Notes: generated from the sequence alone by a model not told the origin. DNA of 64,000 bases from Candidatus Cloacimonadales bacterium (GCA_963667035.1 OY762964.1:2624001-2688000), one strand, 5' to 3'. Shown: positions 12,237 through 30,148, numbered from the stretch's first letter. Translations and numbers: made by a program.

Positions 12237-15200
12237 TTATTTCTTCTTATTAACTTTAAGCTCAGGTTTGTGTTCTTTATATTCTGCCCATCTTAAACTT
12301 CTCAGATTTGTTCTTTGACTTAGACTGAATACAGGAGCTGCAACACGTACAGGAGCTTCGTCAGTTGCTGTCACTTTTACGAAGTAATGATTACCGGGAA
12401 GTAAAGATGCATCCATAGTAGCTGAGTTTGTTGGCCATGAACTTAGATAAGTTAACTCATTAGCTTCAAATTCCGGTGTTTCTTCTACATATACTTTGTA
12501 AAGTGTAGCACCGGAAACAGCATCCCATGTTAGATTCATTAAACTACCGTCATATGATAATGAAATGTTTGCAGGTATATCTAGTGGTATTGGAGGTTCA
12601 ACCAAATCTTCTACTGAAGTAGCAAAAGCTATTGCCAGGTCATTTGATATAGGACCGCCTACACCGTTGTTTCTGTATTGGATACCAATTGTTCCGTCAG
12701 CATTCTCTATACCGATACAGGCATCGCCGGCAATTGATTCAACACCTGAATCACCGTTAGGATTTAAATAGTTCTGATATTGTATTTTTATCCTTCCGCT
12801 AGGATAAAGTATTACTTGAACATCAATGTATTCATTTAAATCACTGTAATCGTTGTACATCATTGCAGTATAAACAAAGTTGCCGGCTACATCATTTCCA
12901 TAGTATAGTACCGATGGTATATCTTCAGGATCTGAGTCCATGGATGCAAATGCTATTACATCATTAGGTCCGGAAGAATTAGGAATAACCAAATTCTCAT
13001 GATTTTGCCAGCCTGAGTCAACTGTGCCAAACTGAATTGTTCCGTTAGAACAGATAGACAACTCGGTATAATCATTACCAAAGTAATTGAAAGTAAATCC
13101 AATAGGAACATTCTGTGCAGAAGCATCATCTCCAAGTGAAATTACAGTACCGGTTTCACTGATATCTACCCACTCAAAGGTAGGTTGATAGCCTAAAGCA
13201 CTACCTTCATCAGTATTATTAGCAAAGTAGTAACCATCATAAAGTGTACCGTCTCCACCATAGTTAGGATTAGATAAAGTAGTGTAACTATAACTAGCTT
13301 CCGGTGCAGGGCCTTCACCATTCTGATTATAACCTGTTACATACCAGTAATATGTTGTATCATAATCAAGAGGAGATGTAAGAACCACACCTGTATAGTC
13401 GCCAACATCTGTTTGGATAAATTCTTCATTATCCAAGCTTACGTACAAGTAATAACCTGAAGCCCAACTGTCAGCATTCCACTGGAATGTAGTGTATTCA
13501 CTTATACCGGTAGCAAGATTTTCCGGTGTAGTCAAAACAATCTCTTCAGGAGTGTTTGCATAAGTAGTAAAACTCCATACAGGACATTCAGTTGCATTAC
13601 CATTTGCATTGTAAGGGATTACTTGCCAATAATGTGTAACGCCACCGGCCAAATCAGTAACATCATAGGTTAAATCTGTGCCATTATCATTCATGCTAAG
13701 AATATTTGTTGGTGGATTATCTGTACCGAAATTCAAATAGTACCCATCAGCGAAGTTAGCAGAATTCCACTCAATAGTTAATGCAAATTCTTGATCAATA
13801 GCCCCGTCAGCAGGTGATACTGCTGTTGTAGCTGCAGGAGGTGTAGCTACTGTTGTAAAGCTCCATACAGAAGCTCCACTGGCATCACCGTTAGCATTGT
13901 AAGGTACTACTTGCCAATAATATGTAACGCCACCGACTAAACCACTATAATTATAAGTAGTTGCATCATCTTGGTTAACCCCATTTAGAATATTTGTTGG
14001 TGGATTGTCTGAACCAAAATACAATTTATAGCCGTCGGCATACAAAACACTATTCCATTCAAGTGTTCCTACTGCAAGCTGATCAACAGCCTCATCGGCA
14101 GGTGATACGAGTGTAGTAACTGCTGGAGGTGTAGTGTTATCAAAAATGTAGATGTCATCTATTGCGATATCTCCAAGATAGCTGGTTGATTCCATACCTC
14201 TAAAGTCTAAAGATACGGTTTGTCCTGCATATTCCGAAAGATTCACCAAACCCATCATCCATTCAGATTGTCCTTCAGGAGATGCAATAGTTACTACGGA
14301 TTCATCAGTTGTTTCACCATTAATAACATCTATATGCAATTCAGTAGTATTAGCATTCTTTCCAATCCAATAGTAGAAAGTAAAAACCGGATTTGTCAAA
14401 CTACTCAAATTGAAAGTAGGTGTATATAGATGAGCAGGAATTACGTTAGGATCTGAATCATCAAGGAACATCATATATCCGCTATTACCTGTATGCTCAG
14501 AAGATGCTGTATAATCATAAGACGTACCTTGATAAGTTTGCCAACCATTATTGCTTGAATCAGGATTACCTACCCATTCAAGTGGAAATTCAGCAGTGTC
14601 AAAAGACTGTGTATAAGGGAAAGCTGCAATAATGGGATCAAATCCTTCACCTTGTACCGGAATATTATGAGTTTCTCTCGTAACATTGTCAACAATCACA
14701 ATATTGTCGCTGACAATTCCTTCAGAAACAGGTTGGAAAGTAACTTCAAATGAAGCAGATTGAGTCGGTGCAAGAGTTAATGGATATGAATTACTATCAT
14801 TTATCGAGAAGTAAGTTCCTGTTGCCATTGCAATCGGATTATTAATTACCAAGTCTGCTCCACCATTATTAGTAATAGTAAACATTTGAGCATCACTTTG
14901 TATATTGATGTAACTCATTCCAAAATCTTTGGATTCTGGATTTATTGAGAACTCAGGTATTTCAGGAATATCACCGAACAGTATTCTAATATTCGGAATC
15001 GAAGTTCTAAGATAGGATGCAGTCGGAGGACCTGTTGGATCTGGATTAGTTGAATCACTTCTATAAATTAGAGAACGACTTTCCTCAACTGTTGTACAGA
15101 AGAATTCATCTGAATTAGTTTCGCAATTTGTTTGATTTTCATCAATGGCAATAACTAAATTATCAGTATTATTATAATTGAAAGGCATATCCAAATTTAA

Positions 15201-16268
15201 CTCAATCCAACAATCTTCTGTTGGATAAGGGTCTAGGGTCACAGAAGCAACTTGCATCAAGTTATCGACTGAAATCCAATCAGTTGTTGAGGCAAACTCT
15301 GTTAAATTGGTATGTCCCATATAGATAACCCACTGAGTTGAATGTTCAAGATCACTATAACCATTGTAATGATACCAAATTTTCTCTATTCTTCTGCTCT
15401 CGACATTTACCTCACTTTGAAGATAGATGCTTTGAGAATATGAATAGCCATAATATGGCTCGATGGGGAGACCTTCGCCTACAACACTTCCATTACCAAT
15501 AGCAATAACATCTGGACCCAAAGGAGTAGAGAATGAATAAACAGGAGATTCAGCTTGTAGTCTTACTACAGTATTCTTTGAAATCACTTTCCAGTAATAT
15601 GTTGTTGTATAAGCTAGTCTTCCCGGAGAATAGTTACCAGCTTCTCCGGCAGTAGCATTATCTATAACCAAATTAGTTGGTGGATTATCTGTACCAAAAT
15701 ATAAGTCATAAGTCTCAGTATTAGCACCAAAAGTCCATGATATTGAAGTGTTTGTTGGCAAATCAAGAGCACCATCTGCAGGTGAAATATTTGAGATTAC
15801 TTCAGGTGTACTAGGGTCTTCGATTACAGCACTCATATCGATTTGATAAGCACCTTCAGAATCATCCCATCCTTCCACAACTATGTAATAATCAGTATTA
15901 GCATCAAGGGCTAAATCTAATAATGAAGAAGTATTATTAGGAAGACTAGAGCCATCCGGGTAATATCCATCATCATTAGACCAAAGCTGAGTAGTTTGAT
16001 CTGCAGCATAAACACGCAAGTATGTGTCAAAACTTGAATTATCAAGTAATATATCAAGATCAAGAATTGCGAATGGTGAATTAATCACATAGAATGCATC
16101 TGCACTAGCATTATCAATAGTATTTGTTAATGTAGTTGTATCCCCAGTGTCGGTATAGGGAAAGTCAGTATTTGTAATCGGGACAGCAGTAGCAAAAGTA
16201 TCTCCCCCAATAGCAAACAATCCTAAAACCAAAACAAATAACATAAGGGTCAATATACTTTTTTTCAT
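12237..16268 (-). CDS. Large secreted surface protein, paralog 1 (PPC-like N-domain, FN3 repeats, choice-of-anchor D/Ig-like, MAM-like, C-terminal FN3-like domain, basic tail)
   Basis: Signal peptide; GDTFATAVPI/FDTYLRVY N-domain; repeated 'YFGTDNPP..YYW' FN3 units; 'FTITNNGGADLVI' Ig-like; paralogous to next two genes. Confidence 0.75.
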   Translation of the reverse strand: MKKSILTLMLFVLVLGLFAIGGDTFATAVPITNTDFPYTDTGDTTTLTNTIDNASADAFYVINSPFAILDLDILLDNSSFDTYLRVYAADQTTQLWSNDDGYYPDGSSLPNNTSSLLDLALDANTDYYIVVEGWDDSEGAYQIDMSAVIEDPSTPEVISNISPADGALDLPTNTSISWTFGANTETYDLYFGTDNPPTNLVIDNATAGEAGNYSPGRLAYTTTYYWKVISKNTVVRLQAESPVYSFSTPLGPDVIAIGNGSVVGEGLPIEPYYGYSYSQSIYLQSEVNVESRRIEKIWYHYNGYSDLEHSTQWVIYMGHTNLTEFASTTDWISVDNLMQVASVTLDPYPTEDCWIELNLDMPFNYNNTDNLVIAIDENQTNCETNSDEFFCTTVEESRSLIYRSDSTNPDPTGPPTASYLRTSIPNIRILFGDIPEIPEFSINPESKDFGMSYINIQSDAQMFTITNNGGADLVINNPIAMATGTYFSINDSNSYPLTLAPTQSASFEVTFQPVSEGIVSDNIVIVDNVTRETHNIPVQGEGFDPIIAAFPYTQSFDTAEFPLEWVGNPDSSNNGWQTYQGTSYDYTASSEHTGNSGYMMFLDDSDPNVIPAHLYTPTFNLSSLTNPVFTFYYWIGKNANTTELHIDVINGETTDESVVTIASPEGQSEWMMGLVNLSEYAGQTVSLDFRGMESTSYLGDIAIDDIYIFDNTTPPAVTTLVSPADEAVDQLAVGTLEWNSVLYADGYKLYFGSDNPPTNILNGVNQDDATTYNYSGLVGGVTYYWQVVPYNANGDASGASVWSFTTVATPPAATTAVSPADGAIDQEFALTIEWNSANFADGYYLNFGTDNPPTNILSMNDNGTDLTYDVTDLAGGVTHYWQVIPYNANGNATECPVWSFTTYANTPEEIVLTTPENLATGISEYTTFQWNADSWASGYYLYVSLDNEEFIQTDVGDYTGVVLTSPLDYDTTYYWYVTGYNQNGEGPAPEASYSYTTLSNPNYGGDGTLYDGYYFANNTDEGSALGYQPTFEWVDISETGTVISLGDDASAQNVPIGFTFNYFGNDYTELSICSNGTIQFGTVDSGWQNHENLVIPNSSGPNDVIAFASMDSDPEDIPSVLYYGNDVAGNFVYTAMMYNDYSDLNEYIDVQVILYPSGRIKIQYQNYLNPNGDSGVESIAGDACIGIENADGTIGIQYRNNGVGGPISNDLAIAFATSVEDLVEPPIPLDIPANISLSYDGSLMNLTWDAVSGATLYKVYVEETPEFEANELTYLSSWPTNSATMDASLLPGNHYFVKVTATDEAPVRVAAPVFSLSQRTNLRSLRWAEYKEHKPELKVNKKK

Positions 16269-16371
16269 AATTGGATAACTCCATATATATTGTTGTTTAG
16301 TATTAATTTGTTTGAAAAGCTATTTATGAATACAAAACTCTCGTTTCGTATTCTGAATAGAATTCGAATAT

Positions 16372-16601
16372 TCTCCTTGTTGTCCTGGTGCATTTCCTTT
16401 TACACCACCCCTTTAGATAATCCTTTCATTGTTTCTTAGAGCTTTGTGGTTATGTGGATGTGTTTTGGTGTGTTCAGCTCTTCAAAACAACTATCTCAGA
16501 TCATTTTTTGTTTCCGGTATTTTATTTCTTCCGGTACGAAATTTCCTTCTTTTTACTGTACTTCAGCCACATTTGTCCTACCTCCTGTGGACCAAAATAC
16601 A
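16372..16601 (-). promoter_or_regulatory. Structured 5' leader, copy 1 (candidate cis-regulatory RNA)
   Basis: Hairpins H1 16557-16601 (loop contains GGTAGGA), H2 16415-16496 (loop CCAAAACACATCCACATAACCACAA), H3 16386-16407, then ACAAGGAGA; same order in copies 2 and 3. Confidence 0.6.
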
Positions 16602-16772
16602 TTGATACAACGCAAATTTGGTTTAATATCAATTTCCTTGTCAAGAGTTTTTTGAATTCACTAATTGCTAAAAAGATTATTTTGATTCTGTAAAATGCTT
16701 AGATTATTGAGTAGATTTAAATTATGAATTTGTTTCAATAAGTGTTTTTATTATTGTTTCTTTACCATTAAC

Positions 16773-16803
16773 AAAAAAAGACGACTCCTTACGAAGTCGT
16801 CTT
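16773..16803 (-). terminator. Intrinsic terminator after paralog 2
   Basis: Minus strand AAGACGACTTC-GTAAG-GAGTCGTCTTTTTTT. Confidence 0.85.
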
Positions 16804-16824
16804 GATTTTCTGATAGATTTATGT

Positions 16825-19800
16825 TTATTTAACTATCTTTTTACCCAATTCCGGTTTAGGCTCAATGTATTCTATCCATCTTAAGTTTCTGAGATTTACT
16901 CTTTGACTAATACTGAATACAGGAGCTGCAACACGTACAGGAGCTTCGTCAGTTGCTGTCACTTTTACGAAGTAATGATTACCGGGAAGTAAAGATGCAT
17001 CCATAGTAGCTGAGTTTGTTGGCCATGAACTTAGATAAGTTAACTCATTAGCTTCAAATTCCGGTGTTTCTTCTACATATACTTTGTAAAGTGTAGCACC
17101 GGAAACAGCATCCCATGTTAGATTCATTAAACTACCGTCATATGATAATGAAATGTTTGCAGGTATATCTAGTGGTGTTGGAGGTTCAACTAATTCTTCT
17201 ACTGAAGTAGCAAAAGCTATTGCCAAGTCATTTGATATAGGACCACCTACACCGTTGTTTCTGTATTGGATACCAATTGTTCCGTCAGCATTCTCTATAC
17301 CGATACAGGCATCGCCGGCAATTGATACAACACCTGAATCACCGTTAGGATTTAAATAGTTCTGATATTGTATTTTTATCCTTCCGCTAGGATAAAGTAT
17401 TACTTGAACATCAATGTATTCATTTAAATCACCGTAATCATTGTACATCATTGCAGTATAAACAAAGTTGCCGGCTGCATCATTTCCATAGTATAGTACC
17501 GATGGTATATCTTCAGGATTTGAGTCCATGGATGCAAATGCTATTACATCATTAGGTACGGAAGAATTAGGAATAGCTAAATTCTCATGATTTTGCCAGT
17601 TTGTGTCAACTGTACCAAACTGAATTGTTCCGTTAGAACAGATAGACAACTCGGTATAATCATTACCAAAGTAATTGAAAGTAAATCCAATAGGAACATT
17701 CTGTGCAGAAGCATCATCTCCAAGTGAAATTACAGTACCGGTTTCACTGATATCTACCCACTCAAAGGTAGGTTGATAACCTAAAGCACTACCATTAACA
17801 GTACTATTGGCAAAGTAGTAACCATCATAAAGTGTACCGTCTCCACCAAAGTTAGGATTTGCCAGAGTTGTGAAGCTATATGTTGCAACAGGTGCAGGTC
17901 CTTCACCATTACTATTATAGCCGGTTACATACCAATAATATGTTGTGTTATAATCAAGAGGTGATGTAAGAATCACACCTGTATAATTACCAACATCTGT
18001 TTGGATAAAGTCTTCATTATCCAAACTTACATACAAATAATAACCGGTAGCCCAACTGTCTGCATCCCACTGGAATGTAGTGTATTCACTTATACCTGTA
18101 GCAAGATTTTCCGGTGCAGTCATAACAATCTCTTCAGGAGTACTTCCATACGTAGTAAAACTCCATACAGGGCAATCAGTTGCATTACCGTTTACATTGT
18201 AAGGAATTACTTGCCAATAATATGTTATCCCGCCAGCTAAATCACTATAATTATAAGTAGTTGCGTCATCTTGATCAACTCCATCTAGAATATTTGTTGG
18301 AGGATTATCTGAACCAAAACTCAAATAATAACCATCAGCAAAAGGCACACTATTCCATTCAAGGGTTCCTGCTGAAAGCTGATCAACAGATTCATCGGCA
18401 GGTGATACTAGTGTAGTAACTGCTGGAGGTATAGTGTTATCAAAAATGTAGATGTCATCTATTGTGATATCTCCATAGAAACTTGTTGATTCCATAGCTC
18501 TAAAGTCTAAAGATACGGTTTGTCCCGCATATTCCGTGAGATTCACAAAACCCATCATCCATTCAGATTGTCCTTCAGGAGATGCAAAAGTTGCTACGGA
18601 TTCATCAGTTGTTTCACCATTCACAACATCTATATGCAATTCAGTAGTATTAGCATTCTTTCCAATCCAATAGTAGAAAGTAAGAACCGGATTTGTCAAA
18701 CTACTGAAATTGAAAGTAGGTGTATATAGATGAGCAGGAATTACGTTAGGATCTGAATCATCAAGGAACATCATATATCCGCTATTACCTGTATGCTCAG
18801 AAGATGCTGCATAATCATAAGACAAACCTTGATAAGTTTGCCAACCATTATTGTTTGAATCAGGATTTCCTACCCATTCAAGTGGAAACTCAGCAGTGTC
18901 AAAAGACTGTGTATAAGGAAAATCTGCAATAATGGGATCAAATCCTTCACCTTGTACCGGAATATTATGAGTTTCTCTCGTAACATTGTCAACAATCACA
19001 ATATTGTCGCTGACAATTCCTTCAGAAACAGGTTGGAAAATAACTTCAAATGAAGCAGATTGAGTCGGTGCAAGAGTTAATGGATATGAATTACTATCAT
19101 TTATCGAGAAGTAAGTTCCGGTTTCCATTGCAACCTGATTGTTAATAACCAAGTCTGCTCCACCATTATTAATAATAGTAAAAGAGTGAGCATCACTTAG
19201 ACTATTAATATAGGTCATACCGAAATCATAAGAGTCAGGATTTATTGAGAACTCAGGTAGTTCAGGAACATCACCAAACTGAATCCTAATATTTGGGATA
19301 GAAGTTCTCAGATAAGATGCAGTCGGAGGTTCTGTTGGATCAGGATTGTTTGAATCACTTCTATACATAATTGAACGACTTTCCTCAACTGTTGTGCAGA
19401 AGAATTCATCTGTACTTGACTCACAACCTGTTTGATTCTCTTCAACAGCAATAACTAAGTTATCAGTATTGTTATAACTGAAAGGTGAATCCAAGTTAAA
19501 CTCAATCCAACCATCATCTGTTGGATAAGGATCTAGTGCCACTGAAGCGACTTGCGTCAAGTTATCGATTGGAATCCAGTCTGATGTAGAGGCAAACTCT
19601 GTTAAATTGGTATGACCCATATAGATAACCCACTGAGTTGAATGTTCAAGATCAGTAGAGCCATTGTAGTGATACCAAATTTTCTCTATTCTTCTGCTCT
19701 CGACATTTACCTCACTTTGAAGATAGATACTCTGAGAATATGAATAGTAATAAAATGGTTCGATGGGGAGACCTTGGTCTACAACACTACCATTACCAAT

Positions 19801-20916
19801 AGCAATAACATCGCTACCAAGATTTGTAGTAAAATTGAATAAACTCTCTGTTCCAATAGAGCTAATCTCATTTTTAGCAACTACTTTCCAATAATATGTT
19901 GTAGCATTAGAAAGTCTACCCGGTATATAAGTTCCACTTGCACCGGCTATTCCATCAGTTATAACTTGAGCAACTGGAGGATTAACTGTATCAAAATATA
20001 AATCATATGTTTCAGTATTTACACCAAAATCCCAAGTTAAAGTTGTTCCAATACTTACATTCATTGCATTATCATCAGGGCTTGGTGATGTTGCTAATCC
20101 GGGTGTTAAATCAATAGTTGTGAAACTATAAACCTGGTTGTTTGTATCTTCACTAACTGAATTCTTAGAAACAACCTTCCAATAATAGGTAGTATTATCT
20201 AACAAATTACTACTAGGTGTATAAGAACCAACTGAAGCTGTACCATCAGTCACAACCTGAACAACAGGTGGATTAACTGTATCAAAATATAAATCATATG
20301 TTTCAGTATTTGCCCCAAAATCCCAAGTTATACTTGTTGTAATTGGTTGATTTATTGAGTCATCTAACGGACTTACATTTGATATTAATTGAGGAGATAA
20401 TGCGTCTATATATATCTCCGGTCCTACGATTTCATCAAGAAGTGTTGGATAACCATAATCATCGATTGCTCTAAATCGAATGTATGCATTGTTTGTTTGT
20501 GCATAGGTTTCAAGATTGTAAGTATGCGACTCATATTCTTCTGCATTTAGTAAGTGATCAATTTCTATCCAAGTCTCTGTACCATCAGTAGAAATCTCAA
20601 TGTATAATTCATTCTGATCTTCAGACCAATCAGCTGCTTTATACCAGAAACTCAATTCATCTGTTTCACTAGCTGTTAAGTCTAATCTAGGGGTTATCAA
20701 AACACCTTCTGAGCCACGATTAGATGTGCCATTGAATCCAGCAGCATGATAACCGGTATAAAAATTAGTGCTTTGTACCCAAGCATGACCTGAAATTATT
20801 GTATTTTCCCAATCTTGTGGAGGGAATCCGTTTTCAAACCCTTCGTTTAATTGCACAGCAAAGATTGAAGTTGCAATCAGAAAAAGAATGGAAACAATTA
20901 ATGTTAATCTTTTCAT
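16825..20916 (-). CDS. Large secreted surface protein, paralog 2 (mosaic of paralog 3-like N-terminus and paralog 1-like body)
   Basis: N-terminal 'LNEGFENGFPPQDW...LITPRLDL..ELSFWYK' (cleaved-adhesin/choice-of-anchor J-like) shared with paralog 3; from 'DVIAIGNGSVV' onward near-identical to paralog 1. Confidence 0.75.
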   Translation of the reverse strand: MKRLTLIVSILFLIATSIFAVQLNEGFENGFPPQDWENTIISGHAWVQSTNFYTGYHAAGFNGTSNRGSEGVLITPRLDLTASETDELSFWYKAADWSEDQNELYIEISTDGTETWIEIDHLLNAEEYESHTYNLETYAQTNNAYIRFRAIDDYGYPTLLDEIVGPEIYIDALSPQLISNVSPLDDSINQPITTSITWDFGANTETYDLYFDTVNPPVVQVVTDGTASVGSYTPSSNLLDNTTYYWKVVSKNSVSEDTNNQVYSFTTIDLTPGLATSPSPDDNAMNVSIGTTLTWDFGVNTETYDLYFDTVNPPVAQVITDGIAGASGTYIPGRLSNATTYYWKVVAKNEISSIGTESLFNFTTNLGSDVIAIGNGSVVDQGLPIEPFYYYSYSQSIYLQSEVNVESRRIEKIWYHYNGSTDLEHSTQWVIYMGHTNLTEFASTSDWIPIDNLTQVASVALDPYPTDDGWIEFNLDSPFSYNNTDNLVIAVEENQTGCESSTDEFFCTTVEESRSIMYRSDSNNPDPTEPPTASYLRTSIPNIRIQFGDVPELPEFSINPDSYDFGMTYINSLSDAHSFTIINNGGADLVINNQVAMETGTYFSINDSNSYPLTLAPTQSASFEVIFQPVSEGIVSDNIVIVDNVTRETHNIPVQGEGFDPIIADFPYTQSFDTAEFPLEWVGNPDSNNNGWQTYQGLSYDYAASSEHTGNSGYMMFLDDSDPNVIPAHLYTPTFNFSSLTNPVLTFYYWIGKNANTTELHIDVVNGETTDESVATFASPEGQSEWMMGFVNLTEYAGQTVSLDFRAMESTSFYGDITIDDIYIFDNTIPPAVTTLVSPADESVDQLSAGTLEWNSVPFADGYYLSFGSDNPPTNILDGVDQDDATTYNYSDLAGGITYYWQVIPYNVNGNATDCPVWSFTTYGSTPEEIVMTAPENLATGISEYTTFQWDADSWATGYYLYVSLDNEDFIQTDVGNYTGVILTSPLDYNTTYYWYVTGYNSNGEGPAPVATYSFTTLANPNFGGDGTLYDGYYFANSTVNGSALGYQPTFEWVDISETGTVISLGDDASAQNVPIGFTFNYFGNDYTELSICSNGTIQFGTVDTNWQNHENLAIPNSSVPNDVIAFASMDSNPEDIPSVLYYGNDAAGNFVYTAMMYNDYGDLNEYIDVQVILYPSGRIKIQYQNYLNPNGDSGVVSIAGDACIGIENADGTIGIQYRNNGVGGPISNDLAIAFATSVEELVEPPTPLDIPANISLSYDGSLMNLTWDAVSGATLYKVYVEETPEFEANELTYLSSWPTNSATMDASLLPGNHYFVKVTATDEAPVRVAAPVFSISQRVNLRNLRWIEYIEPKPELGKKIVK

Positions 20917-21001
20917 TTGTGAATAACTCCATAATTAATAATAATTAAAGAAGTTGAAATAAATAGTTGAACGCTTCTCCGTACTACACCTTTATCTCAT
21001 A

Positions 21002-21201
21002 TCTCCTTGTAACTGCGGTACATCAATAAAGATATACCAATCTTGCAATTTATCTGAAGGTGTCGGTGAATCTTGTGGGTTGTGGATGTGTTTGGATTAT
21101 TTTTCCCCCTGACAACCTAAACAGATCTTATTCAATGGGAAACATAATTTTATAAATTTGTGCATCTCCTACCATGTTAATACACAAAATATATCTCCCA
21201 T
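21002..21201 (-). promoter_or_regulatory. Structured 5' leader, copy 2
   Basis: H1 21135-21201 (loop TAACATGGTAGGAG), H2 21052-21126 (loop CCAAACACATCCACAACCCACAA), H3 21016-21039, then ACAAGGAGA. Confidence 0.6.
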
Positions 21202-21310
21202 ACTAAATAGAGTTTTGATTATCCTATAAAATAATGTCAAGACATTTTTTTCTTTATCTATTATTAAAGCAATATGAATGTGTAATATACTCTTGCAAAT
21301 GAGTATGCAC

Positions 21311-21342
21311 AAAAAAAAGACGACCCCTTGCGAAGCCGTCTT
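21311..21342 (-). terminator. Intrinsic terminator after paralog 3
   Basis: Minus strand AAGACGGCTTC-GCAAG-GGGTCGTCTTTTTTTT; homologous to the terminator at 16773-16803. Confidence 0.85.
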
Positions 21343-21365
21343 AGTTGTAGGTTTATCTTTTTTTC

Positions 21366-24300
21366 TTATTTTTCTTTTTTCAGATTCTCTTCAAGCTTTG
21401 GTTCTTTATATTCCATCCAGCTTAGATTTCTGAGATTTGTTTTTTGACTTAATCTAGAAGAAGGTGCTCCTATGGGAGCAGGAACTTCTTCATCTGTTGC
21501 GGTAACTTTTACGAAATAGTGACTACCAGTAAATAAAGATACATCCATAGATGCAGAATTTGTAGACCATGAACTTAAATAAGTTAACTCATTAGCCTCA
21601 AATTCAGGTGTTTCTTCTGCATACACTTTGTAAAGAGTAGCACCTGATACTGCATCCCATGTTAGGTTCATAACACTACCGTCATAAGAAATAGAAACAT
21701 TTTCCGGAGTTGTTATAAGTCCGGCAGGTTCTGCAAGTCCTTCGAGACTACTAGAATAGGCAATTGCCATATTCTCTAACATCGGTCCACCTTCGCCATT
21801 GTTTCTATATTGTATACCAACTGTTCCATCTGCATTCTCGATACCTATACATGCATCTCCTGGTATTGAAAGACTTCCGGTATCATCGTAAAGATTCACA
21901 TAGTTCCTATATTGAACCTTGATTCTACCGTTAGGGTAAAGAATAACCTGCATATCCATGTATTCATCATAATCATCGTAATCATTCCACATTTCTACAG
22001 TGTAAACAAAATTGCCATTGGCGTCATTCCCATAATAGCAATTTGATGGAATATCAGTTGTATGCATATCCATTGCAGAAATCGCAATTACATCATTTGG
22101 AGTAGATGCATTAGGAATTGTCATATTAGATCCTGTCGAGGTAGCAGGATTAGAGAACATTACATATCCATTTGTTCCAAGGTAAATCTGAGTATAGTCA
22201 TTACCAAAGTAATTGAACGTAAATCCTATATCAACTGTAGCATAACCATCATCAGCACTTGTATATGATGGAGAAGTACCTGTTTCACTTATATCAACCC
22301 AACCAAAAGAAGGTTGATATCCTAATCCATTTCCACCGGCAGTACTATTAGCGAAATAGTAACCACCATACAATACTCCATCACCACCGTAATTTGGATC
22401 TGATTGAGTTGTGAAACTAAATGTGTTAGTCGGAGCAGGGCTTTCACCATTAGGATTATAACCTGTTACATACCAGTAGTAAGTTGTTTCATAATCTAAA
22501 GGAGAAGTCAACGTAACACCGGTAATATCACCAACATCAGTCTGGGTAAAATTCTCGTTATCCAAACTTACATACAGATAATAGCCATCAGCCCAGCTAT
22601 CACTGTTCCACCTAAATGTTGTATATCCATCTACATTGGTTGCTGCATCAGTAGGTGTAGTCATTGTGATTTCTTCCGGAGCATTGCCATAAGTTGTGAA
22701 ACTCCATACCGGGCATTCATTAGTATTACCATTTGCATTATAAGGAACTACTTGCCAATAATATGTAGTACCACCATTTAAGTTAGTAGCATTATAGGTT
22801 AAGTTAATACCATTATCTTGCATATTAAGAATATTAGTAGGTGGATTATCAGTACCTAAATTCAAATAGTAACCGTCTGCAAATGCAACTGTATCCCATT
22901 CAAGTGTTATTTCAAACGGTTGTTCAATAGCTGCATCAGAAGGAGAAACCAGTGTTGATGTTGCTGGAGGATTGGTATTATCAAATACGTGAACATCATC
23001 CAAACAAATATCACTATTGTAATCGGATCCGGTTATTGCTCTAAAACGTACTCTAACCTCATCTCCATAACCGCTTAACAAGAAACTATGCAAGAACCAT
23101 CCTGTGCCTTGATTACCAGAAATAGCAGGAGCTACATCTTCATTCCAAGCAGTTCCATCCCATATATCAAAATGTAACTCACCCATTGTACTACCATACA
23201 TGTTATAATAGAATGAGAATGTAGGATTAGTTAATGATTCAATATTGAAAACAGGTGTAAGTAAATCAAATCTCTCATTTGGATGACTTGTAGCTTCTGT
23301 AAAGATAAACAAGCCATCTCCGGAAGTATGGTCACCAGATGTCGGGCCTGTCGATGAAGAAGGTGTTGAATCACTGATAGTCCAGTCACTATCATCTTCT
23401 GTACCTTGTTCCCATGGAACTGTAAGTTCTCCGCCATTTTCAAAATCTTCGTCATAAGGATATGAAGAAATTACCGGATCAAAACCTTCTCCTTGAACAG
23501 GAATACTGTGCGTTAATCTAGTGATATTATCAACAATCACAATATTATCATTGAAAACTCCTACAGAACTAGGACTAAATGTCACTTCAAATGTTACATT
23601 ATCAGTAGGAGCTATTGTGATAGGGTAACTATTATTATCGGTAACATTGAAGTTTGCTCCGTTTTCCATAGCTATCGGATCATTAATAATTAAATCCGCT
23701 CCACCATTATTAGAAATTGTAAATGTTGGTGCATCGCTAGAAGTGTTAATGTAAGTAATTCCAAAATCATAAGAATCCGGATTTATGAAGAACTCAGGTT
23801 GCTCCGGAAGTTCTCCGAATTTCATTCTAATGTTTGGAATATAATTATATATCCCGGCAGCTACCGGAGGAGCTACAGGATCAGGATTTGTGTTATCATT
23901 CCTATACATTATTGAGCGACTTCCTGTAACTGAAGAACAATAAAACTCATCACTACTTGTTTCATAACCGGATTGATTATCTTCAACTGCAATAACTAAG
24001 TTATCAACATTGTTATAAACAAACGGTGTATCTAATGCAAACTCAATCCAGCCCTCTTCAGTAGGATACGGATCTAAAGTTACAGAAGCAACTTGCAATA
24101 AGTTATCAATTGATATCCAATCAGTATTAGTAGCAAACTCAGTCAAGCTTGTGTGACCCATATAGATTACCCACTCACTGGTGTTGTCAAGATCACTAGA
24201 GCCATTATAATAGTACCAAATCTTTTCTATTCTCTGGTTTGCAAAATCAATTTCACTTTGCAGATAGATACTTTGTGAGTATGAATATCCAAAGAATGGA

Positions 24301-25457
24301 TCAACAGGGAGACCTTTATCAGTGATAGTACCAGTTCCAATGCCAACCATATCAGGACTCAATGCTGTTGTAAAGCTGAATGAATTCTCAGTTGTTCTAA
24401 CAGTATTTGAATTCTTGGAAACAACTTTCCAGTAATATGTAGTATCATAAGCGAGTCTACCCGGATTATAGTTTCCAGTGCCACTACAGATTCCATCTGT
24501 AACAACTTGATTAACCGGAGGATAAACTGTATCATAATATAGATCATATGATTCCGCATTTTCTCCGAAACTCCATGAAATTGAGGTGCCTATGCTTTCA
24601 CTAAGTGCACCATCTTCAGGACTAAGTCCGAATATATCTGCAGGTAACCAATCTTTTGTTGTAAAACTATATACTGGATTAATAGTATCATCTCTAACAG
24701 AATTCTTACAAACAACCTTCCAGTAGTATGTCGTGTCGTCATTTATAATACCACTTGGAGTGTAAGCTCCAATAGAAGCAACACCATCTGTTACAACTTG
24801 AATCAATGGAGGATTCACCGTATCTAAATACAAATCATAAGTTTCTGTGTTTACTCCAAAGTCCCAAGTTATTGTCGGTGTAACGGATTGATTAGCTGAT
24901 TCGTTTTCCGGACTTATGTTTTCAATGTATCCTGGAGCTAATGGATCGATATAGATTTCAGAAGCTACAACATCATCAAGAAGTGTTGGATAACCATAAT
25001 CATCAATTGCTCTAAATCTAATATATGTGGTGTTTGTTTGTGTATAAGTTTCTAGATTGTAAGTGTGTGATTCGAAATCTTCTGCATTTAATAAATGGGC
25101 GATTTCTATCCAATTCTCTGCACCATCAGTGGAAATCTCTACATAAAGTTCATTCTGATCACTGGACCATATTGGCGCTTTATACCAGAAACTCAGTTCA
25201 TCTGCTTCACTTACAGTTAAATCTAATCTCGGTGTTAAAAGGACGCCTTCAGAGCCACGATTAATTGTACCCATGAATTGGGCTGAATAGGAACCGGTAT
25301 TAGCACTAGTTCCTTGAATCCATGCATGACCCGTGACTATATTGTTCTCCCAATCCCGAGGAGGGAAATCGTTTTCGAATCCTTCTGTTAACTGCAAAGC
25401 AAAGATTGAAGTTGCAATAAGAAAAAGAATGAAAACAGTTAATGTTAATCTTTTCAT
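21366..25457 (-). CDS. Large secreted surface protein, paralog 3 (with clear MAM-like domain)
   Basis: Signal peptide, same architecture; WEQGTEDDSDW...TPSSSTGPTSGDHT...FYYNMYGSTMGEL is MAM-like. Confidence 0.75.
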   Translation of the reverse strand: MKRLTLTVFILFLIATSIFALQLTEGFENDFPPRDWENNIVTGHAWIQGTSANTGSYSAQFMGTINRGSEGVLLTPRLDLTVSEADELSFWYKAPIWSSDQNELYVEISTDGAENWIEIAHLLNAEDFESHTYNLETYTQTNTTYIRFRAIDDYGYPTLLDDVVASEIYIDPLAPGYIENISPENESANQSVTPTITWDFGVNTETYDLYLDTVNPPLIQVVTDGVASIGAYTPSGIINDDTTYYWKVVCKNSVRDDTINPVYSFTTKDWLPADIFGLSPEDGALSESIGTSISWSFGENAESYDLYYDTVYPPVNQVVTDGICSGTGNYNPGRLAYDTTYYWKVVSKNSNTVRTTENSFSFTTALSPDMVGIGTGTITDKGLPVDPFFGYSYSQSIYLQSEIDFANQRIEKIWYYYNGSSDLDNTSEWVIYMGHTSLTEFATNTDWISIDNLLQVASVTLDPYPTEEGWIEFALDTPFVYNNVDNLVIAVEDNQSGYETSSDEFYCSSVTGSRSIMYRNDNTNPDPVAPPVAAGIYNYIPNIRMKFGELPEQPEFFINPDSYDFGITYINTSSDAPTFTISNNGGADLIINDPIAMENGANFNVTDNNSYPITIAPTDNVTFEVTFSPSSVGVFNDNIVIVDNITRLTHSIPVQGEGFDPVISSYPYDEDFENGGELTVPWEQGTEDDSDWTISDSTPSSSTGPTSGDHTSGDGLFIFTEATSHPNERFDLLTPVFNIESLTNPTFSFYYNMYGSTMGELHFDIWDGTAWNEDVAPAISGNQGTGWFLHSFLLSGYGDEVRVRFRAITGSDYNSDICLDDVHVFDNTNPPATSTLVSPSDAAIEQPFEITLEWDTVAFADGYYLNLGTDNPPTNILNMQDNGINLTYNATNLNGGTTYYWQVVPYNANGNTNECPVWSFTTYGNAPEEITMTTPTDAATNVDGYTTFRWNSDSWADGYYLYVSLDNENFTQTDVGDITGVTLTSPLDYETTYYWYVTGYNPNGESPAPTNTFSFTTQSDPNYGGDGVLYGGYYFANSTAGGNGLGYQPSFGWVDISETGTSPSYTSADDGYATVDIGFTFNYFGNDYTQIYLGTNGYVMFSNPATSTGSNMTIPNASTPNDVIAISAMDMHTTDIPSNCYYGNDANGNFVYTVEMWNDYDDYDEYMDMQVILYPNGRIKVQYRNYVNLYDDTGSLSIPGDACIGIENADGTVGIQYRNNGEGGPMLENMAIAYSSSLEGLAEPAGLITTPENVSISYDGSVMNLTWDAVSGATLYKVYAEETPEFEANELTYLSSWSTNSASMDVSLFTGSHYFVKVTATDEEVPAPIGAPSSRLSQKTNLRNLSWMEYKEPKLEENLKKEK

Positions 25458-25543
25458 TTGTGAAAAACTCCCTAATAATTAATAATTAAAGAAGTTGAAA
25501 TAAATTGTTGAATAATCTCCGCAACTACACTTTTTATCTCAAA

Positions 25544-25745
25544 TCTCCTCGTAACTACAGCATATCTATTTAGATATACCAATCCTGTACTTTATCTGAA
25601 TGTGTCGGCGAATCTTGTGGGTTGTGGATGTGTTTGGAATTACATTCTCCCGACTACCAAAACAGATCAATATTAATGGGAAAGATTAAATCTAAAATGC
25701 ATTAGCGTATTCCTACCAAGTAAATACACAGAAAACATCTCCCAT
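25544..25745 (-). promoter_or_regulatory. Structured 5' leader, copy 3
   Basis: H1 25676-25745 (loop TACTTGGTAGG), H2 25594-25667 (loop CCAAACACATCCACAACCCACAA), H3 25558-25581, then ACGAGGAGA. Confidence 0.6.
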
Positions 25746-25859
25746 ACCAATCTAAACATTGTCAATCGAGTGTAATAGTGTCAAGGAATTTTTACTTTAT
25801 CTATCATTATAAATAATTGAATGTGTATAATTAGACTCCAAATGGGCATCTAGTTATTG

Positions 25860-25888
25860 AAAAAAGCCGGATTTAAAAGTCCGGCTTT
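25860..25888 (-). terminator. Intrinsic terminator of ECF operon
   Basis: Minus strand AAAGCCGGAC-TTTTAA-ATCCGGCTTTTTT. Confidence 0.8.
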
Positions 25889-25918
25889 GCTTTATATTCT
25901 CAATTCTAAGAGAGAGGG

Positions 25919-26473
25919 TTATTTACATCCGCCCATATTCATTTTATGCATTCTACCGTTAGGGAATGTCTTTATTGTTTCTTTAACTTCATTCTTTTGG
26001 TCGTCTGTTAGCTTATTATAGATGCTTTGAATCATCTTAATTCTGCTTTCATGCATTTTACCTTTTGCATTATTAATCTGCTCTGAAACTTTAAGAGCTT
26101 TGTTGAAGTCTGCATTCTTCATGTAGTTGTGCATATCAATTTCAAGGTTTTCAATTTCAGCTTTCTTGAGATTAGCTTCTTTTCTGTGATTTTCCTTAAT
26201 TAATGTAATGTCATCTTCCTGAGCATCTGTTAAGTCGAGTTTATAGATAGCCATCATCATTCCGTCACCATGCATTCCTTTGCCACAAGCATTGTGCTTC
26301 ATGCCTTGACCTTTCATTCCTTCGTGCCTCATTCCAAAACCTTCACCTCTCATTTCACCTTTACCCATCCTGCAATCGTCGTCTTTCATCATTCCGTTTC
26401 TGTGCAGTCCTTGAGCAAATACCGAGGCAACTAACATTGTTGCTATTGCTAATACTAATACTATCTTTTTCAT
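25919..26473 (-). CDS. Spy/CpxP-family periplasmic protein
   Basis: Signal peptide, Met/Gly/His-rich N-region, two LTxxQ motifs (LDLTDAQ, KLTDDQK). Confidence 0.85.
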   Translation of the reverse strand: MKKIVLVLAIATMLVASVFAQGLHRNGMMKDDDCRMGKGEMRGEGFGMRHEGMKGQGMKHNACGKGMHGDGMMMAIYKLDLTDAQEDDITLIKENHRKEANLKKAEIENLEIDMHNYMKNADFNKALKVSEQINNAKGKMHESRIKMIQSIYNKLTDDQKNEVKETIKTFPNGRMHKMNMGGCK

Positions 26474-26958
26474 TTTTCACTCCTTTCTTTTGGTCTCCTA
26501 TGCGGATACCTTTTATCAATGTGCCCATCAAAGGCATCTCTGTATTTTTTTGTTTCCTCAATTGAGGATGATTTTCTTATTTCTATAAGTTTACTTGAAA
26601 AGCTTTCACTTAAGACCTGTGATCTATCTGACATCATAGTTTTAAGAGAATCCAGTTTTGTATAGGATGGATTATCTTTCATTAACTCTTGAAAGAACTG
26701 TTTCTTCAAACCCTCAATCGTGCAGATATTATCTTTAATCTCTGTACTCATGAGCTTCTTCTTCATTTCATGAGGCAATCTATGTTCCGGTCCTCGAGGT
26801 CCTTTGAAATTTCTTACAGGAGGTCTTTCAAAAGGACGAGGAAAAGGACGTCCATCATACTTGGCAATCTGAATACCTCTAAAGATAAATGATGATATAA
26901 ACGCCAGATTAAATACTAATGATATAATCAAGAGGATATGATACTTTTTACTTATCAT
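26470..26958 (-). CDS. Membrane-anchored periplasmic heavy-metal-sensor/Spy-like protein
   Basis: Start re-assigned to MISKK at 26958 (the longer ORF overlaps the anti-sigma gene); 'LLIISLVFNLAF' anchor typical of this family, then helical region. Confidence 0.6.
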   Translation of the reverse strand: MISKKYHILLIISLVFNLAFISSFIFRGIQIAKYDGRPFPRPFERPPVRNFKGPRGPEHRLPHEMKKKLMSTEIKDNICTIEGLKKQFFQELMKDNPSYTKLDSLKTMMSDRSQVLSESFSSKLIEIRKSSSIEETKKYRDAFDGHIDKRYPHRRPKERSEK

Positions 26959-26959
26959 T

Positions 26960-27361
26960 TTAATCTCCCAGCATTGAACTATACAAGAAAGTATTTTCAA
27001 CCGTATCGAGTGCAGACACATCGGTTGCACCAATTGACGCTGTTGACCAAAAAGCCGTGAAAATACCAAGGTAGAGGGATAGTGCTACTGCAGCTCCATA
27101 AGTTATAAACTTAAGATTAAATCCACGTCTTGTTTTTTCATCCATAGCTCGGGCTTCTGCCATAATCCTGACTGACAAATAATCAGGAGCTTCTACATCC
27201 GGAGTTGATTGCATGATTGAATCCAGTAATTCAGCTTTCTTGACTTCCGCTCGACACAGAGGGCATGCCTGAAGGTGAGTTTCATAACTCAATCTTTCTT
27301 CTCTGTCCATCTCGTTAGCAAGATATCTGTTTACTTTCTTATAGTTGTTTTTGCAATTCAT
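26960..27361 (-). CDS. Zinc-finger (zf-HC2/ZAS) anti-sigma factor
   Basis: MNC...YL.NEM....HLQACPLC (HxxxCxxC) and one TM helix; overlaps ECF sigma stop. Confidence 0.9.
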   Translation of the reverse strand: MNCKNNYKKVNRYLANEMDREERLSYETHLQACPLCRAEVKKAELLDSIMQSTPDVEAPDYLSVRIMAEARAMDEKTRRGFNLKFITYGAAVALSLYLGIFTAFWSTASIGATDVSALDTVENTFLYSSMLGD

Positions 27362-27876
27362 TTTAAAACTCCTTCAATCATATTGACATTGGAAACTTCA
27401 ATTTCCTTCTCAATAATTTTTCTTAACCTCTTTTTTGCTCTTACAAGCTTGGATTCCAAGGCTTTAACAGAGCATCCAAGAGTATCCGCCATCTCTTTAT
27501 AACTGAGCTTTTGGTAATATTGTAATTCAATCAACATTGCCACTTTGGGCGGTAACTTTACTATAGCTTTTTTCACAACATCCATATAGATGTATTCTTC
27601 TTCCGATGGAGCATATATATTATCAATGACAAAATCCGGTGCAGACGTAATTTTCTTCTTTTTGTTCAAATAATTAATCGCTTGATTTCTAGCGGCTCTG
27701 TATAGATATGCAAGTTCTTTCCCATCTTCCACATCATCCATCTTCGCATAGAATTTCAAGAATACACTTTGAGTCAAATCCTCTGCATCTTCTTTTTGTC
27801 TTACAAACTTCAGAAGATAATTAAACAATCTCGTCTGATTATCTCTCACTACTTTTTCGAATAACTCTTTTTTCAT
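27358..27876 (-). CDS. ECF RNA polymerase sigma factor
   Basis: Region 2 DAEDLTQSVF...YLYRAARN; region 4 LSYKEMADTLGCSVKALESKLVRAKKRL. Confidence 0.93.
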   Translation of the reverse strand: MKKELFEKVVRDNQTRLFNYLLKFVRQKEDAEDLTQSVFLKFYAKMDDVEDGKELAYLYRAARNQAINYLNKKKKITSAPDFVIDNIYAPSEEEYIYMDVVKKAIVKLPPKVAMLIELQYYQKLSYKEMADTLGCSVKALESKLVRAKKRLRKIIEKEIEVSNVNMIEGVLK

Positions 27877-27945: not shown

Positions 27946-28189
27946 CTATTTACAAAGTAATTGTACCGTCCTTATCATGCAATCCTTTAATCCGGCATCG
28001 AAGAGTAGAGAGCCTTCTTTGTTGTAAATAGTTCTTGCTCGGGAGATAGTTAGGACTCCATCCTCGATCTCTTTAACTACTTTGCGTTTAAATACTTCAC
28101 TATAACATAATGCTGTTTTCTGTTTCATTTTCTATAAACCTTTACTCTCTCTCATTTCTTAATGTGTCTACTTTATTTAGGACGATATA
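27946..28189 (-). pseudogene. IS3-family remnant: left end and truncated OrfA
   Basis: YSEVFKRKVVKEIEDGVLTISRAR resembles IS3 OrfA helix-turn-helix; degenerate terminal sequence TATATCGTCCTAAATAAAGTAGACACA at 28163-28189; no OrfB follows. Confidence 0.65.
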
Positions 28190-28214: not shown

Positions 28215-28326
28215 CCACAGGTTTATCTCGGGTTAGTCTCCCGTTGCCCTCCCGTTGGTCTCCCGTTGCTCGCAACGAGATAGAAACGGGAGAAAAATGA
28301 GACAGAAACTTGTGAAAATTCTCCGG
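28215..28326. repeat. 112-bp dyad array of 11-bp units, copy B (inverted relative to copy A)
   Basis: ccacaggttta tctcgggttag tctcccgttgc cctcccgttgg tctcccgttgc | tc | gcaacgagata gaaacgggaga aaaatgagaca gaaacttgtga aaattctccgg. Confidence 0.85.
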
Positions 28327-28699: not shown

Positions 28700-30148
28700 A
28701 TGAGAATAAAGATTAAAGAGGATAACGTACTGATATTCATACAGATGCTCATCATGATAGTAGCGGCTATTTTTTTCTCCTATAAAACAAGCCCAATTAT
28801 TAATAAATTCTTTTTTGCAATTTGTACAGCTCTATTTTTGTTCACTAAAAAGAATAACTATTTCTGGATATTCTTCACATTGCTGTTATTGGATCAATTC
28901 GGAGGCTTTTTCAGACAGGGTTATTATGAGTCTGATTTCGGTATACCAAGATTTAGACTGATAAGTGGATTTACTTTTGATTATTACGATATTTTTATAA
29001 TTATCTGTTTTGTAAAGGCCCAGACTTGGAGACATCTTAACATCGCTAAGTTTATCGGTTCCATAAAAGTGCTAATTTTCTATTTTATAATGCTGTATGT
29101 CCTGTCTGTCTCGATTGGAATGTCCTTAGATAAACATACAACAATGATGAGAATTATCTTCTTCTTTAGTAGTTTCTTATCATTCCAAGTGCTGATGGAT
29201 GAAAAGCAATTAGAAAAATTAGTAGCATTGGCACATAACTTTATGCCTATTGTATTGTTATTGCAGATATTTACTCTTGTGATGGGTAAATCGCCTTACA
29301 ATATGGTGATGGGTAGTGATCATGTTTTTGATTGGGATAATGCCGGTTTAGGCGGATATAGAGTTATCTATTCCGGTTTCTTAAATCTATTTAGTTATAT
29401 CACTTCGATATTTTTGTATAGATTGAAAGATAAAAACTTTAGTCAGGATAAGTTACTTTTAGTAATGTTAACTTGCTATATGTCAATACTTTTAACAGCT
29501 ACAAGAGGTTGGATTATATCCTATTCTTTCCTAATGCTCTATTTCTTCTTCTCAGAGTTGAGATTAAGATCCTCAAATAAACTTAGATATCTGCTTGTTG
29601 TTCCTATTTTCTTTATTATCTTACTGCAAATGTTCCCAATTCTTCAAACTCAGATAGAGTTGTCATTTAACAGGTTTCTCACAATTAGAGACATTGCAGG
29701 GGGTGATTTAACAGCCGGAGGAACTCTAAGTAGATTAACTGATAGAAGTGCTCCTGTTATGGATAAGTTCATGGAAAGTCCGATAATCGGATTTGGTTTC
29801 TCTAATCAGTATTTCGATAATGCTGACCAACATGTAGGGAATCAATCTCTACTTTTAAATGTGGGTGTAGTAGGATTCATCTTCTTCATAATGCTGATTT
29901 TAGAGATTTTATATATATTGAGTAAAACTCAGAGAAGATACTACTATGAACCTGATAAGAGGTCTGCCTTAAATGCCCTAAAGGTTAGTATAGTCTCTAT
30001 TTTGTTAATTCATTCAAGTTCAACTCAATTGTTGGGTTTTCATGTATTGCAGCATCAAAAGAAATTTATATTAATTACAGCAATAATAGTAGCTTTAATA
30101 CTGAAGAAATTCAGAATAAATCAAAAACAACAACAAATAAATATTTAG
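28700..30148 (+). CDS. O-antigen polymerase/ligase (Wzy/WaaL-like) membrane protein
   Basis: Many TM helices; LTATRGW, SPIIGFGF and HVG..SLLLNVGVVG motifs of O-antigen ligase-like family; first gene of polysaccharide locus. Confidence 0.8.
   Translation: MRIKIKEDNVLIFIQMLIMIVAAIFFSYKTSPIINKFFFAICTALFLFTKKNNYFWIFFTLLLLDQFGGFFRQGYYESDFGIPRFRLISGFTFDYYDIFIIICFVKAQTWRHLNIAKFIGSIKVLIFYFIMLYVLSVSIGMSLDKHTTMMRIIFFFSSFLSFQVLMDEKQLEKLVALAHNFMPIVLLLQIFTLVMGKSPYNMVMGSDHVFDWDNAGLGGYRVIYSGFLNLFSYITSIFLYRLKDKNFSQDKLLLVMLTCYMSILLTATRGWIISYSFLMLYFFFSELRLRSSNKLRYLLVVPIFFIILLQMFPILQTQIELSFNRFLTIRDIAGGDLTAGGTLSRLTDRSAPVMDKFMESPIIGFGFSNQYFDNADQHVGNQSLLLNVGVVGFIFFIMLILEILYILSKTQRRYYYEPDKRSALNALKVSIVSILLIHSSSTQLLGFHVLQHQKKFILITAIIVALILKKFRINQKQQQINI

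Follow-up and report, generated by a model that had tools for sequence, protein, structure and literature searches.

The window analysed here is a stretch of 64,000 nucleotides (nt) from Candidatus Cloacimonadales bacterium (G000:C1:2624001-2688000; the host genome has 3.10 Mb in one contig and 35.6% G+C). It contains three giant paralogous genes in head-to-tail order on the minus strand, and each is preceded by a copy of the same long, structured leader, which is the subject of this work. A first-pass annotation had placed the three leaders on the minus strand and given the order of their elements, and both are correct; its coordinates run exactly from the word ACRAGGAGA to the foot of the first hairpin. 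The NCBIfam scan of the proteins covered paralogs 1 and 3 and found a choice-of-anchor D domain in both. The genes and their leaders are the following.

12237-16268, minus strand: giant paralog 1, 1343 aa, with MAM, Ig-like HYDIN/VesB and choice-of-anchor D domains
16825-20916, minus strand: giant paralog 2, 1363 aa, with MAM and Ig-like HYDIN/VesB domains
21366-25457, minus strand: giant paralog 3, 1363 aa, with MAM, Ig-like HYDIN/VesB and choice-of-anchor D domains
16266-16644, minus strand: leader copy 1, c1-like, from TTGACA to the ATG of gene 12237-16268
20914-21240, minus strand: leader copy 2, c2-like, from TTGACA to the ATG of gene 16825-20916
25455-25784, minus strand: leader copy 3, c2-like, from TTGACA to the ATG of gene 21366-25457

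Read on the coding strand, the order is a terminator, an A-rich tract with TTGACA, hairpin H1, the word GAUCUG, a rod of two helices (P1-P2, the H2 hairpin of the first-pass annotation), hairpin H3 and the word AC(A/G)AGGAGA. The span from TTGACA to ATG is 327-379 nt. The rod is capped by a G-free, CA-rich loop of 28-32 nt that contains ACAUCCAC and CACA. Seven copies of the leader were found, the three of the window and two in each of two other genomes. Local folds give an identical helix order in all copies, and the GGA loop that had been proposed for H1 is present as GUAGGA in 7/7. The elements of the window copies, with the true Shine-Dalgarno (SD) sequences, are given here.

16557-16601, minus strand: H1 of copy 1, loop GGAGGUAGGACAAA, GUAGGA at 16576-16581
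16514-16534, minus strand: H1b of copy 1, CCGG/CCGG
21135-21201, minus strand: H1 of copy 2, outer stem AUGGGAGAU.../...UUUCCCAU and an inner stem, GUAGGA at 21167-21172
25676-25745, minus strand: H1 of copy 3, GUAGGA at 25711-25716
16497-16502, 21122-21127 and 25663-25668, minus strand: GAUCUG of copies 1, 2 and 3
16419-16502, minus strand: P1-P2 rod of copy 1, P1 GAUCU/GGAUU, P2a GUUGUUUU/AAGAAACAAU, P2b AGAGCU/AGCUCU
16443-16474, minus strand: G-free loop of the copy 1 rod, 32 nt
21052-21126, minus strand: P1-P2 rod of copy 2, P1 AUCUG/CAGAU, P2 GGU.GUC.G.../...C.GAC.ACC
21073-21104, minus strand: G-free loop of the copy 2 rod
25594-25667, minus strand: P1-P2 rod of copy 3, P1 AUCUG/CAGAU, P2 GUCGG..GAAU/AUUC..CCGAC
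25615-25642, minus strand: G-free loop of the copy 3 rod
16382-16411, minus strand: H3 of copy 1, UGGUGUA/UGCACCA
21017-21038, minus strand: H3 of copy 2, GGUAUAUC/GAUGUACC
25559-25580, minus strand: H3 of copy 3, GGUAUAUCU/AGAUAUGCU
16372-16380, minus strand: ACAAGGAGA of copy 1, SD-like, 100 nt 5' of the ATG, not the ribosome binding site (RBS)
21002-21010, minus strand: ACAAGGAGA of copy 2; its predicted partner is the anti-SD AACUUCUUU at 20947-20955
25544-25552, minus strand: ACGAGGAGA of copy 3; anti-SD AACUUCUUU at 25488-25496
16279-16282, minus strand: true SD GGAG of gene 1, 14 nt before the ATG at 16266-16268
20927-20930, minus strand: true SD GGAG of gene 2, predicted to be sequestered by AACUUC
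25468-25471, minus strand: true SD GGAG of gene 3, predicted to be sequestered by CUUCUUUAA

The word AC(A/G)AGGAGA had been taken for the RBS. This does not hold, as the open reading frames (ORFs) start 76-100 nt downstream and each is served by a separate GGAG, 11-14 nt from its ATG. For the 12-mer AACACATCCACA, the window has three occurrences where 0.44 would be expected, a count reached in 0/100 shuffles; in a genome scan, the exact matches of its 11-nt core ACACATCCACA were the three leaders only. An upstream ORF or leader peptide was considered and rejected. No conserved start codon follows ACRAGGAGA when the sequences are read by eye, and the CA word has 1-nt indels, which rules out coding.

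The pairing of the stems was assessed on a seven-copy, model-fitted alignment. Standard pairs are found in 88.8% of 169 cells; sliding the 3' partners by 1-3 columns reduces this to 34-45%. Compensatory changes, on both sides of a pair, are seen in 11/25 pairs (1-3 when slid), and 0/500 column shuffles reach any of the observed pairing measures. H3 is the cleanest helix, with 96.5% of its cells paired and 5/9 pairs doubly changed. H1 and H3 are more stable than shuffled sequences in 7/7 copies (z -1.8 to -5.2, p ≤ 0.043), and the core of the large loop is predicted to be unpaired in 7/7 with a probability of 0.58-1.00. The sense strand outfolds the antisense strand in all seven copies, for H1, for H3 and for the whole leader. 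This excess is expected of an RNA with G-U pairs and not of a DNA site.

The copies fall into a c1-like subfamily (copy 1, G001_a, G003_a and G003_b) and a c2-like subfamily (copies 2 and 3, and G001_b), which are 49-57% identical to one another. Over the whole leader, copy 1 shares 49-52% identity with copies 2 and 3. It had been described as strongly diverged with its words kept, and this is borne out by the seven-copy core alignment, in which 41/160 columns are invariant: GAUCUG, GU.G, ACAUCCAC, CACA, GAU.A, UGG and AGGAGA. H1b is present only in the c1-like copies, and its stems all differ (CCGG/CCGG, GGAGCG/CGCUCC, ACAGGC/GCCUGU and GACAGG/CCUGUC). Orthologous leaders of G000 and its sister species G001 show 74% (copy 1) and 64% (copy 3) identity. 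For the coding sequences the identity is 61% in DNA and 54-55% in protein, for the third positions of conserved four-fold codons 47-48%, and for the untranscribed spacer between terminator and promoter 44-50%. The leader exceeds coding DNA, four-fold sites and spacer, which makes it the part of the locus under the strongest constraint. Being more constrained than its genes, it qualifies as a candidate new cis-regulatory RNA, as first proposed.

Each leader is preceded by a TTGACA box and, further upstream, by a terminator.

16639-16644, minus strand: -35 box TTGACA of copy 1, with a 17-nt spacer to CCAAAT at 16616-16621
21235-21240, minus strand: -35 box TTGACA of copy 2, with a 17-nt spacer to CAAAAC at 21212-21217
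25779-25784, minus strand: -35 box TTGACA of copy 3, with a 17-nt spacer to CAATGT at 25756-25761
16778-16803, minus strand: intrinsic terminator after paralog 2, 5' of the copy 1 promoter
21317-21342, minus strand: intrinsic terminator after paralog 3, 5' of the copy 2 promoter
25863-25888, minus strand: hairpin and T-run after the LTXXQ gene, 5' of the copy 3 promoter (the scan gave the plus strand; the T-run is read on the minus strand)

TTGACA is enriched 4.8-fold in the intergenic DNA of G000. It lies 28-191 nt before the start in 9/11 other paralogs of the giant genes and is absent in 2/11. The -10 element is degenerate across the genome, the sole signal being a weak T about 22 nt past TTGACA. 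TTGACA is thus the general -35 box of the organism, and the leaders appear to use an ordinary promoter, with no evident one of the extracytoplasmic function (ECF) type. Promoters of G000 seem to depend on a strong TTGACA with a nearly featureless -10. With a 17-nt spacer assumed, H1 begins 3-8 nt after the predicted start. The arrangement is best explained if each giant gene forms its own transcription unit, with about 290-345 nt of untranslated RNA.

One may ask whether the conserved words act as RNA at all. They could be double-stranded DNA sites for a transcription factor, for example one linked to the ECF sigma factor, with the hairpins incidental. The CA-rich word does read as near-tandem TGTGG/TGTGGA/TGTGT on the plus strand, and two species have an ECF sigma/anti-sigma operon immediately upstream. 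However, the words are found 130-200 bp past the promoter, whose -35 box is nothing special in this genome, the flanking stems change on both sides while the pairs are kept, and the G-U pairs make the fold strand-specific. We consider a DNA site very unlikely.

The terminator scan found no terminator-like site inside the leaders. Expression could still be set by premature, Rho-dependent termination, with the G-free, C-rich P2 loop, as the sole unstructured C-rich patch of the leader, acting as a regulated Rho utilization (rut) site. Rho is encoded in the genome, the loop contains no G in its 28-32 nt and is predicted to be single-stranded, and the leader is long, untranslated and without an intrinsic terminator. 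The excess of C over G is unexceptional, however: 0.3-9% of all 60-nt windows in the genome attain the values seen around the loop. Here a specific word is invariant, whereas known rut sites have degenerate sequences and greater length. An attenuator of this kind seems improbable.

The leader is confined to a single genus. Seven copies and one degenerate variant were found in 3/4 of its species genomes (three copies in G000, two in G001 and two in the fragmented G003); G002, which is 83% complete in 450 contigs, gave no copy. All seven lie directly 5' of paralogs from one gene cluster. When 40 related genomes were searched by BLAST with the leader, and five of these then with copy 1, homologs were returned only within the genus. 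A covariance model (R1) built from copies 2 and 3 and the G001 homolog recovered every known copy at full length. It had no true match in eight genomes from two further genera of the family, and none outside the genus when 151 genomes sampled from the order (147 outside the genus) were searched. A second model (R2), built from all seven copies, gave the same distribution. Three other matches were rejected as spurious: one in G034:C18 (32.9 bits) lies within a 302-aa ORF and has no CA loop, one in G006 (24.5 bits) lies in a terminator region, and one in G003:C414 was dismissed when its sequence was read. A weaker R1 match in G020 (23.2 bits, E 0.096) was not among the matches inspected by sequence. 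No covariance-model match was obtained at 78 loci that encode protein relatives in other Cloacimonadales and other phyla. A metagenome scan for the loop word gave at least 117 loci; among the matches listed, all were CA repeats or chance matches as judged by their flanks, and none was a homolog.

The degenerate eighth leader lies before another paralog in G003 (L155, G003:C249, 2813-3175). It keeps an H1-like hairpin with a GGAGGUAUGAAA loop, an H1b-like hairpin, P2a GUUGU/ACAGC, P2b CCCGG/CGGGG and a CA-rich loop (AAACACACCCACACAAACCAAAAACAUAC), and is without GAUCUG, ACAUCCAC and AGGAGA. The gene 5' of it encodes a RarD/EamA transporter and is not the ECF operon.

The giant MAM/Ig proteins belong to a large multigene family. 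In G000, 14 ORFs of at least 700 aa match paralog 3 (E ≤ 1e-20, paralog 3 included), with other members for example at C1:2980499, 2597536 and 2814549 on the plus strand, and there are dozens of matches per genome across the whole bacterial family. The long leader is found in G000 only at the tandem cluster adjoining the ECF operon; 480 nt upstream of 11 further paralogs contain no CA-rich loop motif.

This distribution also bears on a simpler role. The leader might be a constitutive stabiliser and nothing else, with hairpins that guard a very abundant mRNA against 5'-end-dependent decay and leave its RBS usable, without a switch or a specific factor. H1 is significantly stable in 7/7 copies at 3-8 nt from the predicted 5' end, and the genes downstream encode giant secreted surface proteins. 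There is a precedent in the slpA 5' untranslated region, where, according to a review, a stable stem-loop stabilises the transcript and exposes the RBS (PMC10221546). A stabiliser, however, needs a stem and not a sequence. Here the stems vary, and about 40 loop and linker bases are invariant at 49-57% identity; moreover, the 11 further paralogs do without the loop motif. Stabilisation as the only role is conceivable but rather doubtful.

The first-pass annotation recognised no known riboswitch, and an Rfam search of the 64-kb window agrees, with 0 matches at gathering thresholds; the families covered include c-di-GMP-I/II, T-box, SAM, TPP, cobalamin, ykkC and the RAGATH motifs. Rfam 15 at E ≤ 10 over 16000-26200 gave four weak matches, all outside the leaders and far below threshold. 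A riboswitch for a metabolite or second messenger would have P1-P2-H3 as its aptamer and the SD-sequestering hairpin as its expression platform. The conserved architecture, the invariant unpaired bases and the covarying stems would fit, as would the partial sequestration predicted for the SD, and adhesin genes are riboswitch targets elsewhere, for example of the cyclic di-GMP-I (c-di-GMP-I) class. Against it stands that no Rfam family appears in the leaders even at the relaxed threshold. The invariant bases lie in two large apical loops and in linkers instead of a multi-helix junction, and the 28-32-nt loop is predicted to be unstructured; no pseudoknot partner for it was found by eye or by duplex search. 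The aptamer-like part is 76-100 nt away from the SD, with variable hairpins between them. Since invariance in apical loops is combined with the lack of a terminator in the leader and with restriction to one genus, the anatomy speaks against a riboswitch, and we regard one as unlikely.

A specific switch had also been proposed, in which UGUUUUG on the 5' side of the rod would pair with CCAAACA of the loop. The pairing is present in the window copies. However, in 7/7 copies it is no better than that of shuffled flanks (z -0.7 to +1.5; 24-94% of the shuffles equal it), and it results from base composition, a GU-rich flank facing a CA-rich loop.

Closer to the start codon, the predicted probability that the true SD is unpaired is 0.20-0.61. 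A local fold of the last leader segment predicts an SD-sequestering hairpin in 5/7 copies. For the true SD of the three c2-like copies, the predicted partner is AACUUCUUU or UUCCAAA; AACUUCUUU can pair with ACRAGGAG as well. Forcing ACRAGGAG to be unpaired lowers the predicted accessibility of the SD from 0.20-0.36 to 0.04-0.12 in 3/3 c2-like copies.

Each of the seven leaders has 7-11 GGA where 3.5-6.5 would be expected, an enrichment of about 2-fold, and GGA motifs had suggested control by CsrA/RsmA. This is contradicted by the genome. A six-frame search of the 98.2%-complete, one-contig assembly gave 0 matches to CsrA (PF02599), with positive controls in E. coli, B. subtilis and T. maritima. 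Hfq was not found in G000 either. The GGUAG of the H1 loop resembles the core of the ops element. The sole PF02357 match in the genome is the housekeeping NusG, with no specialised paralog, which removes antitermination of the RfaH/LoaP/UpxY type. G000 encodes a single small RRM protein (RRM_1), with its gene at C1:872346-872552. Two intergenic 9-mer matches were considered as partners of the loop and rejected, as they are fragments that read as coding sequence. Near another paralog, at G000:C1 ~88070 and ~91398, there are two copies of a conserved, coding-like stretch of ~70 nt (..KKKAIKDALDAGIKVLMKAVDVV..). These carry the 9-mer ACATCCACA on the opposite strand and lie outside the crude ORF mask.

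The ECF operon lies 5' of paralog 3 and spans 25919-27876 as a whole.

27358-27876, minus strand: ECF sigma factor
26960-27361, minus strand: zf-HC2 anti-sigma factor
26470-27069, minus strand: 199-aa ORF with no Pfam or NCBIfam match
25919-26473, minus strand: LTXXQ/Spy-like periplasmic protein

The order of sigma factor, anti-sigma factor and LTXXQ gene is also kept in the sister species G001, where the series continues, as in G000, with terminator, leader and giant gene. The 199-aa ORF and the anti-sigma ORF overlap by 110 nt in different frames; their counterparts in G001 (L153 892-1425 and 1427-1894) adjoin without a long overlap. Between the ECF sigma gene and a divergent Wzy_C-like gene (28700-30148) is an ORF-poor gap of 0.8 kb, in which a CAACGGGAG-like word is repeated three times in tandem (..GCAACGGGAGACCAACGGGAGGGCAACGGGAGAC.., 28235-28300, minus strand). 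A 60-aa ORF at 27946-28128 on the minus strand (MKQKTALCYSEVFKRKVVKEIEDG...) resembles the N-terminal helix-turn-helix of an IS3-type transposase OrfA, and is presumably a remnant.

The leader is a real, structured, strand-specific and strongly constrained element of one genus, and it probably controls the amount of giant surface proteins made. We favour the reading that it is a new, genus-restricted mRNA leader, both cis-regulatory and stabilising, whose exposed loops are read by a putative factor; we give this a probability of about 0.5. Of the original proposal, a candidate cis-regulatory RNA that is conserved, structured, strand-specific and without an Rfam match stands, and the CsrA, switch and RBS parts do not. 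The leader would have been duplicated along with the giant MAM-domain genes. Its fold would expose three invariant single-stranded words, GUAGGA, the G-free loop with ACAUCCAC, and ACRAGGAGA, while the hairpins, chiefly H1, would shield the long untranslated 5' end. The exposed words may be docking sites for a trans-acting factor, either a protein (the single small RRM protein, for example) or a small RNA (sRNA), which would set translation, mRNA survival or both. In the c2-like copies, ACRAGGAG and the true SD would compete for the anti-SD AACUUCUUU, so that an occupied ACRAGGAG would close the real RBS.

Several points weigh against this reading. That the leader is transcribed at all, and from which start site, is predicted from the promoter. 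There are only seven sequences from three species, related to each other, and the best pair statistics come from a model-fitted alignment, which is biased towards structure. When minimum free energy (MFE) structures of whole leaders were transferred on MAFFT alignments, the excess of kept pairs was weak or absent: 64%, 50%, 55%, 37%, 43%, 39% and 40% of changed pairs were kept in seven comparisons, against 25-59% when slid. Since this signal is weak, we relied on the module-level tests and those aligned by covariance model. In the three c2-like copies, the stability of the P1-P2 rod does not exceed that of shuffled sequences (z -0.1 to -0.9). P1 is invariant at 4/5 of its pairs and is thus uninformative either way; at the fifth, 4/7 copies have no standard pair. 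As to a partner, the duplex energies of the loop with 16S rRNA are no better than those of shuffles, and a genome-wide search with 14 nt of the loop returned only the leaders and one match with one mismatch. Within the mRNAs, a search for complementary sites gave nothing conserved; a 9-bp match between loop and SD is present in G001_b alone. Finally, the effect of ACRAGGAG on SD accessibility is absent in 4/4 c1-like copies and cannot explain the invariance of ACRAGGAGA; as modelled, this competition can be only part of the story.

A more specific form of the proposal can be put forward tentatively, although we consider it rather improbable. The 23-nt G-free CA-rich word and GUAGGA, on two tips, would form a bipartite platform for a dedicated RNA-binding regulator. 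The regulator may be tied to the ECF/Spy-like envelope-stress module, and would co-switch translation or Rho-dependent read-through of the adhesin family. If true, this would be the first post-transcriptional control described for Cloacimonadota, with a CsrA-like logic in a genome without CsrA. Cloacimonadota are uncultured syntrophs of anaerobic digesters, and our search of the literature found nothing on RNA-level regulation in them. The giant surface proteins probably mediate cell-cell or cell-substrate contact. The best-conserved part of this fast-evolving surface-protein locus is its non-coding leader, which marks the leader as a control point for these proteins. As the genome is without CsrA and Hfq, the 140-nt core with its two invariant loops could serve as bait for substitute RNA-binding regulators in the FCB (Fibrobacteres-Chlorobi-Bacteroidetes) group and related bacteria.

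Four kinds of known system can be compared. CsrA/RsmA leaders share with the present one the enrichment in GGA and one A(N)GGA in a hairpin loop (GUAGGA), and ACAAGGAGA resembles the CsrA consensus from systematic evolution of ligands by exponential enrichment (SELEX). They differ in that no CsrA gene exists here and that the gene-proximal GGA word is 76-100 nt from the start codon and does not lie over the SD. The c-di-GMP-I riboswitch (GEMM-I, RF01051) and other riboswitches of adhesin genes are also conserved structured leaders with SD sequestration as a possible output. In contrast to them, the present leader matches none of 4227 Rfam models, has no junction-type aptamer and is found in one genus.

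In Bacteroides, the single-RRM protein RbpB is reported to bind single-stranded RNA, and FopS sRNAs to target mRNAs of outer-membrane proteins (PMC11697453). The RbpB and GibS/FopS system is similar in belonging to an FCB-group organism without Hfq and CsrA, and one small RRM protein is encoded here. However, no sRNA partner was found in our loop searches of the genome, and the Bacteroides targets are hit near the start codon of SusC-like mRNAs and not in a 300-nt leader. The RRM protein is connected with the leader by its presence in the genome only, so that the comparison is an analogy and not evidence.

The S-layer leaders (Lactobacillus slpA) are alike in having a long untranslated leader with a stable 5'-proximal stem-loop before the gene of an abundant surface protein, with proposed roles in stabilising the mRNA and exposing the RBS (PMC10221546). 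The leader described here is 2-3x longer, has 3-5 hairpins and no sequence relationship to them, and about 40 of its bases in loops and linkers stay unchanged between diverged paralogs, which would not be required of a pure stabiliser. It is a previously uncatalogued RNA motif within a known kind of element.

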